Of a stretch of DNA of 64,000 bases, positions 54,825 through 59,522 are shown piece by piece. The position numbers and the translations under genes are program-made. A model generated the notes under the pieces. The model searched no databases. It worked only from the letters and a program-made list of their open reading frames with translations, and was not told the DNA's origin. The DNA lies in the NCBI RefSeq assembly GCF_009931435.1, contig NZ_CP043414.1. The stretch is one strand, 5' to 3'. The stretch's first letter is position 1. Each line of letters opens with the position of its first letter. Source of the stretch: Escherichia coli (lineage in GTDB: Bacteria > Pseudomonadota > Gammaproteobacteria > Enterobacterales > Enterobacteriaceae).

Positions 54825-57422
54825 TTAAACCGCAGTCTGGAAAATCACCCCATCCGCTTTTTCGGTGTACTGAGAAAGCTGGTTGAAGTTCAGATAACGA
54901 TAAGTATCAACGGCTGTTTTATCTACCTGCGCCACGTAGGTCTGGTACTCTTCCGGCGTCGGCAGTTTGCCAATCAGCGCCGCAACAGCAGCCAGTTCCG
55001 CAGAAGCCAGGAAGACGTTCGCGCCAGTCCCCAGACGGTTCGGGAAGTTACGGGTAGAGGTGGAAACCACCGTCGCACCGTCCGCTACACGCGCCTGGTT
55101 ACCCATACACAGGGAACAGCCAGGGATCTCGATACGCGCACCACTCTTACCGAAGACGCTGTAGTAGCCTTCTTCGGTCAACTGCGCGGCGTCCATACGC
55201 GTTGGCGGTGCCACCCACAGGCGGGTCGGCAACTGACCTTTGTGCGCATCCAGCAGTTTACCGGCGGCACGGAAGTGACCGATGTTGGTCATGCAAGAAC
55301 CGATAAACACTTCGTCGATCTTCTCGCCCTGTACCGCAGACAGCGGACGTGCGTCGTCCGGGTCGTTCGGTGCACAGAGGATTGGCTCTTTGATATCAGC
55401 CAGATCGATATCGATTACTGCTGCGTATTCTGCATCAGCATCGGCTTCCAGCAGCTCAGGATTCGCCAACCATTTTTCCATACCCTGAATACGGCGTTCC
55501 AGGGTACGACGATCGCCATAACCTTCCGCGATCATCCACTTCAGCAGGACGATGTTAGAGTTCAGGTATTCAATGATCGGCTCTTTGTTCAGCTTGATGG
55601 TACAACCGGCAGCAGAACGCTCGGCGGACGCATCGGTCAGCTCAAAGGCCTGCTCAACTTTCAGATCCGGCAGACCTTCGATTTCCAGAATGCGACCAGA
55701 GAAGATGTTTTTCTTGCCTTTCTTCTCAACGGTCAGCAGACCTTGTTTGATCGCATACAGCGGAATGGCGTGTACCAGATCGCGCAGGGTGATGCCTGGC
55801 TGCATTTTGCCTTTGAAGCGAACCAGAACGGATTCCGGCATATCCAGCGGCATTACGCCTGTTGCAGCTGCAAATGCCACCAGACCAGAGCCCGCCGGGA
55901 AAGAGATACCGATCGGGAAACGGGTATGGGAGTCACCGCCAGTACCGACGGTATCCGGCAGCAGCATACGGTTCAGCCAGGAGTGGATTACGCCATCACC
56001 CGGACGCAGCGACACACCGCCACGGTTCATGATGAAGTCCGGCAGCGTGTGGTGCGTGTTCACGTCAACTGGTTTCGGATAAGCCGCTGTGTGACAGAAA
56101 GACTGCATCACCAGATCAGCCGAGAAGCCCAGGCACGCCAGGTCTTTCAGTTCATCACGGGTCATTGGGCCGGTGGTGTCCTGGGAACCTACAGAGGTCA
56201 TTTTCGGTTCGCAGTACGCCCCCGGACGAATGCCTTTCACGCCGCAGGCACGACCGACCATTTTCTGCGCCAGCGAGAAGCCGCGATCGCTCTCAGCGAC
56301 ATCTTTCGCCTGACGGAACACATCGCTCTGCGGCAGGCCGAGTGCTTCACGTGCTTTGGTGGTCAGGCCACGCCCGATAATCAGCGGAATACGGCCACCT
56401 GCTCGCACTTCATCAATCAGCACGTCGGTTTTCAGTTCGAAGGTCGCCAGCAGTTCGCCGGTTTCGTGGTTACGCACTTCACCTTTGTACGGGTAAACGT
56501 CAATCACGTCGCCCATGTTCAGGTTAGAGACGTCGACTTCGATTGGCAGTGCACCCGCGTCTTCCATCGTATTAAAGAAGATTGGTGCAATTTTACCACC
56601 GAGGCACAAACCACCGCCGCGTTTGTTCGGTACATGAGGAATGTCTTCACCCATAAACCACAGCACGGAGTTAGTCGCAGATTTACGTGAGGAACCGGTA
56701 CCCACAACGTCACCCACATAGGCCAGCGGGAAACCTTTCTGTTGCAGAGCTTCGATTTGCTTGATCGGACCAACAACACCCGGCTGATCTGGCTCAATAC
56801 CTTCACGCGCGTTTTTCAGCATCGCCAGCGCGTGCAGTGGGATATCCGGGCGCGACCACGCATCCGGTGCCGGAGAGAGGTCATCGGTGTTGGTTTCGCC
56901 AGTTACTTTGAAGACGGTAACGGTCAGTTTTTCAGCCAGCGCCGGGCGATTCAGGAACCATTCGGCATCCGCCCAGGACTGCATTACCTGCTTCGCATAT
57001 TCGTTACCTGCTTTCGCTTTCTCTTCTACGTCATAGAAGTTATCGAACATCAGCAGCGTGTGAGAAAGTGCTTTGGCAGCGATCGGTGCCAGTTTGGCAT
57101 CATCCAGCGCGTCGATCAGCGGATGAATATTATAACCACCCTGCATGGTGCCCAGCAGTTCGATGGCTTTTTCCGGAGTCAGCAGTGGGGATTTAGCTTC
57201 GCCTTTGGCGACAGCAGCCAGGAAGCCTGCTTTGACATAGGCGGCTTCATCGACGCCAGGGGGAACACGGTTGGTTAACAGATCTAACAGGAATTCTTCA
57301 TCGCCCGCGGGCGGGTTTTTCAGCAGCTCTACAAGTGCGGCCATTTGGTTTGCATCCAGGGGTTTGGGCGCAATCCCCTCAGCGGCACGCTCAGCTACGT
57401 GCTTACGGTATTCTTCTAGCAC
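54825..57422 (-). CDS. acnB: aconitate hydratase B / 2-methylisocitrate dehydratase
   Basis: ORF 54825..57575; start placed at the GTG at 57422 (VLEEYRKHV) preceded by AGGAGAA; 865 aa; Fe-S ligand cysteines. Confidence 0.93.
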
Positions 57423-57776
57423 GACGGTTCTCCTCGCTCTCATTGTCATAGTGCGGCAGGCGATTCTCTTCACGCTCCTGTGAGACAGCAGTTTGTAGGG
57501 TAAATGCCCAGTACCGCAACGGGCAGAATAGCAGGATTTTGACGATGTGTTAATCTGTTTACAAAAAAGCAACATAAAAAAGTGGCTGAATCGTTAAGGA
57601 TAGTCTAGAGATTGTTTCCCTCCGTAAAAACCTCGTTAATTCGCATGGTGATAATCACCTTTCTCAACGAATCCCAAGATTAGTCAAAATTTAAACTACC
57701 GCCTCTTTATACTCGGATTCATAGCACCTGCGGGTGGCAGTTCGCCGACCATTGCGATTTCCTTGAGATCCGAATT

Positions 57777-59522
57777 ATGAAAATGACTTTGCCGTTTAAA
57801 CCCCATGTGCTGGCGCTAATTTGCAGTGCCGGGCTTTGTGCCGCCTCTGCCGGGCTATATATAAAAAGCCGCACAGTGGAAGCGCCTGTGGAAGCGCAAT
57901 CGACACAACTGGCTGCGCCTGACATCACCGCAGTTACGCTTCCTGCAACGGTTTCCGCACCGCCCGTAACGCCCGCCGTCGTTAAAACCGCATTCAGCAC
58001 TGCGCAAATAGATCAATGGGTTGCACCTGTCGCGCTGTACCCCGACTCTCTGCTTTCACAAGTGTTAATGGCATCAACCTATCCGACAAACGTTGCGCAA
58101 GCAGTGCAATGGTCGCACGATAATCCACTTAAACAAGGCGATGCTGCTATTCAGGCGGTATCTGACCAGCCGTGGGACGCCAGCGTCAAATCGCTGGTGG
58201 CTTTTCCGCAATTGATGGCGTTAATGGGCGAAAACCCGCAGTGGGTGCAAAATCTTGGCGACGCATTTCTGGCGCAACCACAGGACGTAATGGACTCGGT
58301 ACAGCGGTTGCGGCAACTGGCGCAACAAACCGGCTCGCTGAAGTCATCAACCGAACAGAAAGTTATTACCACAACGAAGAAAGCTATACCGGTAAAACAG
58401 ACAGTCACGGCTCCCGTCATACCATCCAATACCGTTACAACTGCCAACCCTGTCATTACAGAGCCTGCAACAACCGTCATTTCCATTGAGCCCGCCAATC
58501 CTGATGTGGTCTATATTCCCAACTACAACCCAACCGTGGTTTACGGGAACTGGGCCAATACTGCGTATCCGCCGGTTTATCTGCCACCACCAGCCGGAGA
58601 ACCGTTTGTTGACAGCTTTGTGCGCGGATTCGGCTATAGCATGGGCGTTGCTACCACGTACGCACTATTCAGCAGCATCGACTGGGACGATGACCATCAT
58701 CATGACGATGATGATTATCACCACCACGATGGCGGTCATCGTGACGGTAATGGCTGGCAACACAACGGCGACAACATCAATATCGACGTCAACAATTTCA
58801 ACCGTATCACCGGTGAGCATCTTACTGATAAGAACATGGCATGGCGGCACAATCCAAACTACCGTAATGGTGTGCCCTATCATGATCAGGATATGGCAAA
58901 GCGGTTTCACCAAACCGATGTCAACGGCGGCATGAGCGCCACGCAGTTACCTGCTCCAACACGCGACAGCCAGCGTCAGGCGGCAGCAAGTCAGTTTCAG
59001 CAACGAACACACGCCACACCCGTCATTACGCGAGATACACAACGTCAGGCGGCGGCACAGCGATTTAATGAAGCGGAACACTATGGGAGCTATGACGACT
59101 TCCGCGAGTTCAGCTGTCGCCAACCACTGACCCAGCAACAAAAGGACGCCGCTCGTCAGCGTTATCAGTCGGCCTCTCCTGAGCAGCGCCAGGCAGTCCG
59201 CGAGAGAATGCAGACTAACCCGCAGAACCAGCAGAGAAGAGAAGCGGCACGTGAGCGTATTCAGTCAGCCTCGCCTGAGCAGCGCCAGGCGGTTCGCGAG
59301 AAAATGCAGACTAACCCGCAGAACCAGCAGCGAAGAGAGGCAGCGCGTGAGCGTATACAATCAGCATCACCTGAACAACGTCAGGTTTTTCGGGAGAAAG
59401 TTCAGGAGAGCCGCCCACAACGTCTAAACGACAGTAACCGTACTGCCCGATTGAATAACGAGCAACGGTCAGCAGTACGCGAACGTCTCTCTGAGCACGG
59501 AGCAAGGCGACTGGAAAGGTAA
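57777..59522 (+). CDS. yacH: DUF3300-family secreted protein YacH
   Basis: 581-aa ORF with signal peptide, Asp/His-rich segment and C-terminal tandem repeats; divergent from acnB. Confidence 0.8.
   Translation: MKMTLPFKPHVLALICSAGLCAASAGLYIKSRTVEAPVEAQSTQLAAPDITAVTLPATVSAPPVTPAVVKTAFSTAQIDQWVAPVALYPDSLLSQVLMASTYPTNVAQAVQWSHDNPLKQGDAAIQAVSDQPWDASVKSLVAFPQLMALMGENPQWVQNLGDAFLAQPQDVMDSVQRLRQLAQQTGSLKSSTEQKVITTTKKAIPVKQTVTAPVIPSNTVTTANPVITEPATTVISIEPANPDVVYIPNYNPTVVYGNWANTAYPPVYLPPPAGEPFVDSFVRGFGYSMGVATTYALFSSIDWDDDHHHDDDDYHHHDGGHRDGNGWQHNGDNINIDVNNFNRITGEHLTDKNMAWRHNPNYRNGVPYHDQDMAKRFHQTDVNGGMSATQLPAPTRDSQRQAAASQFQQRTHATPVITRDTQRQAAAQRFNEAEHYGSYDDFREFSCRQPLTQQQKDAARQRYQSASPEQRQAVRERMQTNPQNQQRREAARERIQSASPEQRQAVREKMQTNPQNQQRREAARERIQSASPEQRQVFREKVQESRPQRLNDSNRTARLNNEQRSAVRERLSEHGARRLER
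59154..59410 (+). repeat. ~96-bp in-frame tandem repeat (about 2.7 copies) within yacH
   Basis: units start at 59154, 59250 and 59346; encode ...QSASPEQRQAVRE(R/K)MQTNPQNQQRREAARERI... Confidence 0.85.

Follow-up and report, generated by a model that had tools for sequence, protein, structure and literature searches.

Two in-frame length-variable modules, an Asp/His-rich tract and a 96-bp repeat array, in the yacH gene of Escherichia coli

Variable-number tandem repeats (VNTRs) in bacterial envelope and surface proteins have units that are multiples of 3 bp, copy numbers that vary between strains, and chimeric units at their junctions, and His/Asp-rich metal-binding segments are known from the periplasmic His-rich loop of ZnuA and the tails of SlyD and HypB. 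Features resembling both kinds are found in yacH, which encodes a putatively exported protein of the DUF3300 family, in a 64,000-nt stretch of Escherichia coli DNA (contig NZ_CP043414.1; hereafter the window). The window yacH encodes a protein of 581 amino acids (aa) with an Asp/His-rich tract and a C-terminal array of 96-bp repeats (Table 1). The array shares the three properties listed above with envelope VNTRs, but its copy number spans a small range (2–5), its units are diverged (66–88% nucleotide identity), and its alleles are seemingly clonally stable; to our knowledge, yacH has no link to antigenic variation or adhesion. The tract is similar to the ZnuA, SlyD, and HypB segments in its alternating runs of His and Asp/Glu, its predicted disorder, and its length variation between species, and similar to the ZnuA loop in its likely periplasmic location. 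However, YacH has no homology to these proteins and no metal-responsive regulation was found upstream of its gene.

DUF3300 proteins have been reported to carry signal peptides, and the family is without a characterized member; in rhizobia, DUF3300 and DUF2950 are universally co-localized (PMC4653623). The DUF3300–DUF2950 pair is usual in the family, whereas in enterobacteria yacH stands alone between acnB and lpdA, without a DUF2950 partner. Many members of the family share with YacH a basic, repetitive C-terminal tail. A likeness to CpxP, Spy, and ZraP can also be seen, in that the YacH segment (A)SPEQRQAVRE(K/R)MQ resembles the LTxxQ helix starts, short paired helices are predicted, and yacH is reported to be Cpx-regulated.

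The joint reading developed below, to which we give a probability of roughly 0.72, is that yacH carries two in-frame length-variable modules, that the window allele arose by deletion from a four-unit array, and that roles in binding or spacing can be inferred for the acidic loop and the basic tail.

Length variation of the repeat array and the Asp/His tract

Tandem Repeats Finder (TRF) detected a period of 96 at 59154–59385 (2.4 copies, 86% matches, no indels, score 331), and a direct-repeat search found three in-register 96-nt copies at 59124–59411, with the second and third being 80% and 66% identical to the first. In the coding frame these correspond to three units at 59151–59438, so that the first-pass annotation, which had described about 2.7 copies of an in-frame, Gln/Arg-rich 96-bp repeat at 59154–59410, gave a fair account of the array. 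The tail that holds it (aa 395–581) contains 19% Arg and 18% Gln and carries a net charge of +14. Units 1 and 2 have 84 of 96 nt and 29 of 32 residues in common, and because their differing codons comprise eight synonymous and only three non-synonymous ones, the peptide of the units appears to be under constraint. Two shorter repeats accompany the array. The degenerate half-unit in the last tail helix has conserved counterparts in other genera, of the form LN(N/T)xQR(S/A)AV, and the 69-nt repeat upstream of the array encodes the AlphaFold helices 396–412 and 419–434, and its second copy lies within a 45-aa block that is duplicated in a 662-aa E. coli allele.

The window protein also carries a Cys at codon 449 (59122–59124; C450/C451 in gapped alignment columns), in the context ...EFSCRQP.... 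The codon specifies Arg in all Escherichia alleles examined except E. coli SCPM, which has Gly, and the E. albertii sequence ...FSHHQAP... is less clearly aligned here. This R-to-C change is private to the window allele and provides the third Cys of a likely periplasmic protein.

The second module, the tract DDDHHHDDDDYHHHDGGHRDG, contains 16 Asp and His residues (7 His and 9 Asp) per 21, whereas the best 21-residue window in 2,000 shuffles of YacH held 5.6 on average and 9 at most. As in His-rich metal-binding segments, its His residues cluster with Asp/Glu in a stretch predicted to be flexible, and metal binding by the tract is plausible on this basis. At the DNA level, TRF recognized it as an imperfect 21-bp duplication at 58689–58731. 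The extent proposed earlier, about 58690–58750, was essentially right (Table 1).

Allele structures were worked out for 16 retrieved alleles and 120 database proteins. The BL21/K-12-type YacH has 617 aa, and its alignment with the window protein showed two gaps only, one of 32 aa in the tail and one of 4 aa in the tract; the 36-aa shortfall of the window protein thus results from one 32-aa unit and four tract residues (DHDH) fewer. A longer K-12 protein, differing by repeat copy number or an indel in the tail, had been proposed in the first-pass annotation and was borne out, and the additional tract gap had not been anticipated there. Across Escherichia, YacH varied between 553 and 662 aa, with arrays of 2, 3, 4, or 5 units, so that the suggested difference in repeat number between strains holds and the protein is not of one length in all of them. 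Three unit types were distinguished, A (...QAVREKMQTNPQNQQRREA), B (...QVFKEKVQQRPLNQQQRDN), and the terminal C (...QVFREKVQESRPQRLND). The array AABC was found in K-12/BL21, E. whittamii, and Escherichia sp. E1V33, and yacH of O157:H7 has the 1854 bp of AABC alleles, a comparison by length alone. ABC occurred in E. coli W/KO11FL and others, A-A-C in the window, in UTI89 (phylogroup B2), and in E. albertii, AAABC in a 648-aa allele, and a two-unit array, consisting of an A/B chimera and C, in the 553-aa protein of strain 158274-3. Other in-frame duplications or deletions involved 3, 4, 11, 17, or 45 aa. With its strain-variable copy number and a unit that is a multiple of three, the 96-bp array is an in-frame VNTR.

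Allele frequencies were estimated from two samples drawn systematically from 5,425 complete E. coli genomes and do not represent a census. Four-unit alleles (1848–1854 bp, or 1815 bp with a short tract) made up ~53–60% of the samples and three-unit alleles (1746–1782 bp) ~40%; the two-unit allele was seen in 1 of 60 rows, and disrupted genes were occasional. Length by itself does not identify an allele, because strain 2013C_3963 reaches 581 aa by another route: its unrelated allele combines the array ABC with an Asp/His segment of 27 aa and with the loss of 12 bp from unit 1.

The tract varied in length, too. The segment between the two Trp residues that enclose it (W-to-W segment) ranged in Escherichia from 14 aa (strain 29A20CPO013) to 35 aa (strain 401656) and measured 23 aa in the window vs. 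26–27 aa in most alleles. Among Escherichia alleles the tract itself was as short as 11 residues, and only a few residues were present in Buttiauxella and Yokenella. The window tract is 4 aa (DHDH) shorter than that of BL21/K-12, and relative to the closest alleles it is without GAT-CAT-GAC, 9 bp whose site is flanked by GAC repeats. In a Salmonella isolate, an 8-bp frameshifting deletion has been described inside the homologous Asp/His tract (PMC10048834), and the tract is therefore a mutational hotspot there too. Short slippage events that expand and contract the tract would account for the 14–35-aa range of the W-to-W segment.

These properties could also be those of a rapidly switching, phase-variable contingency locus, given that the repeats lie inside an envelope-protein gene and that the Salmonella deletion shifts the frame. 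We regard this as very unlikely. All repeat periods are multiples of three, by which slippage alters the length of the protein and not its expression, and every fetched allele that is annotated with an intact coding sequence keeps the frame. In addition, the single full-length rows of O157:H7 that were sampled all had 1854 bp, and so did the rows of laboratory strains (BL21, EPI300), as expected of clonally stable alleles, and an identity of only ~66–88% between units disfavors high-frequency slippage.

Sequence divergence within E. coli was also marked. Between BL21 and UTI89, the synonymous divergence (dS) of yacH was 0.30 over the N-terminal 909 nt (57777–58685) and ~1.1 in the Thr/Pro/Val linker (aa 191–235), and the ratio of non-synonymous to synonymous divergence (dN/dS) was 0.01–0.06 in the folded domains and 0.2–0.8 in the linkers; all E. 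coli strains drawn from the complete genomes shared one LpdA protein, WP_000102485.1. The allelic divergence of yacH within the species is unusually deep, suggesting either old allelic lineages or recombination imports. In-frame tandem-repeat polymorphism of an envelope protein is a known kind of variation, and for yacH no published description was found: searches of the literature on yacH together with multiple-locus VNTR analysis (MLVA), VNTR, or tandem repeats yielded no account of its polymorphism.

Origin of the window allele

Comparison of unit 3 with the other units showed that its nt 1–14 were identical to the head shared by A2 and B (14/14) and had four differences from C, and that its nt 16–96 matched, without a difference, the C unit with which four-unit arrays end (81/81). 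Because the head matches A2/B and the body matches C, unit 3 is a chimera of a B head and a C body, and from its sequence it is best read as the trace left by the loss of the B unit through an in-frame deletion of 96 bp. Such a chimera is what unequal recombination or slipped mispairing would be expected to leave upon taking out exactly 96 bp. Among proteins, P0014 (616 aa) was the nearest, with a four-unit array and only seven substitutions relative to the window protein in addition to gap columns, and since this closest relative is a four-unit allele, the window allele would have arisen by a 96-bp deletion. Over the N-terminal 909 nt, the window gene was 98.0–98.5% identical to the B-containing alleles of 2013C-4282 and MFDS1022581, and its middle part was 97.9–98.4% identical to B-containing alleles.

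We therefore favor, as far as these comparisons go, a history in which an AABC ancestor would have lost its B unit by a 96-bp deletion with the junction within ~15 nt of the start of the B and C units, and in which a 9-bp deletion (GAT-CAT-GAC) would have shortened the tract. More generally, the 96-bp units may recombine unequally or mispair by slippage and so yield arrays of 2–5 units. In the two-unit allele of strain 158274-3, unit 1 consists of an A1 head (nt 1–43) joined to a B body, and the third unit of the B2 allele has an A-like head to ~nt 38; chimeras with different breakpoints therefore point to several independent events.

The reverse polarity has to be weighed, namely that the three-unit array is ancestral and the B unit of K-12-type alleles a later duplication, so that the difference would be an insertion in K-12. 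E. albertii and the B2 strain UTI89 also have three A-A-C units, the third with the A-like head just described, which makes a three-unit ancestor of the genus plausible; their arrays may be ancestral rather than deletions, a point that counts against reading every three-unit array as a deletion. However, the third unit of the window is unlike that of B2 and E. albertii, in that its body is the derived C type throughout and B/A2-type sequence is limited to its first 14 nt. Moreover, the B unit is old and diverged, being present in E. whittamii and Escherichia sp. E1V33, and the nearest relatives of the window allele (P0014, 2013C-4282, and MFDS1022581) all have it. For the window allele, an ancestral three-unit array is thus improbable, and the loss of a B unit is preferred.

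The window allele is not an assembly artefact. Three to four 96-bp repeats (~300–400 bp) can exceed the read length, and a collapse of the tandem repeat in a short-read assembly would produce a short allele. That explanation is hardly credible here, as the independent assembly GCA_036360105.1 matched 3744 of 3746 nt over yacH and its flanks, and 265 indexed collection blocks contained the exact window protein, in five cases with contigs >1 Mb. Three-unit alleles are also common in complete, closed genomes, and the deletion junction is a clean in-frame chimera. The exact protein has been deposited under both "Escherichia coli" and "Escherichia sp."; the allele was not among the complete E. coli genomes, where the best whole-gene identity was 95.7%. 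The window acnB was 95–99% identical to that of nearly all E. coli, with a top match of 99.1%. By its acnB and the deposits of its YacH, the window belongs to E. coli taken broadly.

Distribution in related genera and predicted structure

From species-representative genomes, 36 loci were recovered. The Asp/His tract follows directly after a conserved SSIDW in Escherichia, Salmonella, Atlantibacter, Kluyvera, Raoultella, Rahnella, and Ewingella, where its sequence and length vary freely and where its DNA consists of a 12–27-bp tandem repeat. Only a short tract is present in Buttiauxella and Yokenella, and a Bordetella homologue has none; over 135 aligned family members, the consensus at the tract site was only DWxxGxxNINVN, and strongly Asp/His-rich segments were restricted to enterobacterial representatives. 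Judged from these alignments, the tract is a lineage-specific loop expansion retained for its composition, which selection acting on composition and not on sequence would maintain.

The 96-bp array is specific to Escherichia. In other genera, independent 54-bp arrays (18 aa, QNPTAQQQQRRExAKSH) of 2–3 copies were found, and short, mostly Arg-rich tandem repeats occurred in the tails of 51 of 96 distant DUF3300 representatives. An RDAARxR motif, considered as an ancient element of the tail, was present in only 5 of 104 distant-homologue tails and was dropped. The family is very large, with 9,613 cluster representatives matching DUF3300 at E ≤ 0.001. In distant metagenomic homologues (L047, 5001–7444; L050, 5001–7537), the DUF3300 gene overlaps the start of the downstream DUF2950 gene, whereas no adjacent downstream DUF2950 gene follows yacH; the enterobacterial yacH either lost this partner or was always without it. 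That the YacH tail might be a fused DUF2950 was rejected, since BLASTP of the C-terminal half against the distant DUF2950 partners gave no similarity.

A locus from a record titled Chryseobacterium sp. 18061 (L034) is a typical enterobacterial yacH, 50% identical to the window gene and with a three-copy 54-bp tail array. It is very like the yacH in a record titled Citrobacter sp. 18056, and the former record is probably mislabelled or a contaminated assembly.

An AlphaFold2 model of the window YacH was built from a 135-sequence alignment and had a mean predicted local distance difference test (pLDDT) score of 74.6. It consists of a helix at aa 9–30, a disordered linker, a helical domain at aa 75–184, a beta-rich region, the low-confidence tract loop, and a helical tail. 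The pLDDT was 95–98 at aa 71–200 and <50 at aa 315–330 in the tract region, which lies between two conserved beta-strands, 299–301 and 334–337. The array was modelled as helices 468–479, 482–497, 500–512, 514–528, and 532–549, mostly with a pLDDT of 70–89; each 32-aa unit thus forms two predicted helices of 12–18 residues, broken or N-capped at Ser-Pro and Asn-Pro. The structure search returned no significant fold match for the full-length model, and phmmer searches of the tail against PDB sequences gave insignificant helical matches only, none of them to Spy, CpxP, or ZraP at E ≤ 10.

The idea, suggested for checking in the first-pass annotation, that the repeat module forms a coiled coil, which as a long oligomerization rod would have its length set by the copy number, is not favored by the model and appears quite improbable to us. 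In favor of it, the tail is helical with many charged residues, and its weak PDB matches include designed helical bundles and prefoldin (E 0.2–2, not significant). However, prolines at two fixed positions per unit break the helices every 13–19 residues, well below the uninterrupted heptad helix of ~28 residues or more that a coiled coil calls for, small hydrophobic residues (A, V/I, M) number only about three per helix, and no fold match reached significance. Membership of YacH in the LTXXQ/CpxP-Spy family was also rejected, there being no Pfam LTXXQ/Spy match at E ≤ 10, no PDB sequence match, and no fold match.

Genomic setting and possible roles of YacH

That the gene is yacH and encodes an exported protein of unknown function, as first proposed, agreed with the complete E. 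coli genomes, 5,425 of 5,426 of which annotate it as "yacH" or "DUF3300 domain-containing protein", and with the Pfam profile DUF3300 (PF11737), which matched aa 75–329 over essentially its full length (model positions 2–227 of 227, E = 1.1e-77) and places YacH in the family. DUF3300 was the sole Pfam match at E ≤ 10, and no NCBIfam model matched. The N-terminus has K2 and K8 followed by a 19-residue hydrophobic stretch, with an A-S-A/G motif at aa 23–26 and no lipobox. The neighboring genes acnB and lpdA are both on the minus strand, and the order acnB–yacH–lpdA is also annotated in E. coli BL21(DE3). Coordinates of the features are listed in Table 1.

Table 1. Features of the yacH locus in the window, with coordinates and the evidence on which each was placed.
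Feature	Coordinates	Strand	Evidence
yacH coding sequence, 581 aa, putatively exported DUF3300-family protein	57777..59522	+	open reading frame, E. coli annotation, Pfam
N-terminal hydrophobic helix, aa 9–30, candidate Sec signal peptide or signal anchor	57801..57866	+	AlphaFold, sequence
Pfam DUF3300 match: helical domain (aa 75–184) and beta-rich part, joined by fast-evolving Thr/Pro/Val linker	57999..58763	+	Pfam, AlphaFold
Asp/His-rich tract DDDHHHDDDDYHHHDGGHRDG, aa 304–324, predicted disordered loop, GAY/CAY codon repeats	58686..58748	+	sequence, AlphaFold, TRF
Two-copy degenerate 69-nt (23-aa) repeat, TRDSQRQAAA... / TRDTQRQAAA..., upstream of main array	58959..59057	+	repeat search, AlphaFold
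Repeat unit 1, type A1, ARQRYQSASPEQRQAVRERMQTNPQNQQRREA	59151..59246	+	repeat searches, unit comparison
Repeat unit 2, type A2, ARERIQSASPEQRQAVREKMQTNPQNQQRREA	59247..59342	+	unit comparison
Repeat unit 3, chimera, diverged from units 1 and 2	59343..59438	+	position-by-position comparison with A2, B, and C consensus
Degenerate half-unit LNNEQRSAVRERLSE, aa 559–573, last tail helix	59451..59495	+	comparison with other genera, AlphaFold helix 562–574
Predicted bidirectional intrinsic terminator (A8, GCGGC stem, U6), common to convergent yacH and lpdA	59534..59564		folding

The terminator between yacH and lpdA has a predicted fold of -20 kcal/mol (z = -3.45), and the Rfam scan and the promoter and terminator scans of the yacH region on both strands gave nothing relevant. 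Upstream of yacH, a weak CpxR-like direct repeat, GTAAA-N6-GTTAA, is located at 57624–57639, its N6 spacing being non-canonical. The acnB–yacH intergenic region also contains a perfect 13-bp palindrome, GGTGATAATCACC, at 57647–57659. Both the direct repeat and the palindrome fit the Fur, Zur, and CRP consensus poorly. The acnB open reading frame (54825–57575, minus strand) would encode 916 aa vs. the 865 aa (2,598 nt) of the annotated E. coli AcnB; the true acnB start is probably near 57422, giving an intergenic region of ~354 bp. Disrupted yacH genes were seen in NZ_CM129855.1, E. coli E69, and strain AST85 (an IS1 insertion, a frame truncated after ~aa 370, and a 98-bp remnant, one each), and the gene is therefore dispensable.

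No functional characterization of YacH was found in the literature searched. The gene has been reported to be CpxR-regulated, with a transcript that falls upon protamine exposure and a deletion mutant that survives protamine better than the wild type (PMC9600279); it is also reported to be Rob-dependent, with lower expression in a rob mutant (PMC7537768), and to be mildly induced by cathelicidin in UTI89 (PMC6737244). From its composition, the Asp/His loop is most likely a periplasmic loop that binds divalent cations (Zn/Ni/Cu) with low affinity or that is acidic and titrated by pH, and the basic tail most likely serves for multivalent electrostatic binding or as a spacer, with a reach and valency that would be set by the number of units. 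Both may contribute to the reported effect of YacH on the susceptibility to cationic antimicrobial peptides. A bolder version, in which the His/Asp loop and the Arg/Gln tail would form a metal- or pH-gated electrostatic switch under Cpx/Rob control that sets cationic-peptide susceptibility, with variants of 2–5 units and 11–32 residues tuning it between lineages, is speculative and quite improbable.

Several observations weigh against functional roles of this kind. The scans for Fur, Zur, and CRP boxes upstream of yacH found none and thus gave no regulatory hint of a metal role, the tail models are of moderate confidence only, and the tract and the tail tolerate large length changes in a gene that is sometimes destroyed. 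Any function of YacH is therefore dispensable and does not depend critically on length.

For the same reasons, namely the lack of a Fur/Zur box, the length tolerance, and the occasional destruction of the gene, a serious rival is that both modules are functionally neutral low-complexity filler, slippage-prone DNA that is tolerated in loops and tails. This would agree with the wide length variation without loss of frame, with the short tract of Buttiauxella and Yokenella and the loss or disruption of the gene in some strains, and with the failure to find, beside any metal-regulator box upstream, any homology to known metal-binding or chaperone families. However, an Asp/His composition is kept at one site from Escherichia to Rahnella and Ewingella despite a complete turnover of the sequence, the units show more synonymous than non-synonymous differences (8 vs. 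3), and basic repetitive tails recur across the DUF3300 family. Neutral filler is therefore considered unlikely, less so than any of the other alternatives discussed here, and functional roles of the two modules are preferred.

By itself, the polymorphism is a standard result of slippage or unequal recombination and reveals no new mechanism. About half of E. coli nevertheless differs from K-12 in unit number, which calls for caution in taking the K-12 YacH as representative, and the repeats could serve as a typing marker. YacH is an E. coli protein of unknown function in a very large family without a characterized member or a solved structural relative, and its two natural length-variant modules provide a ready-made allelic series for probing its role.

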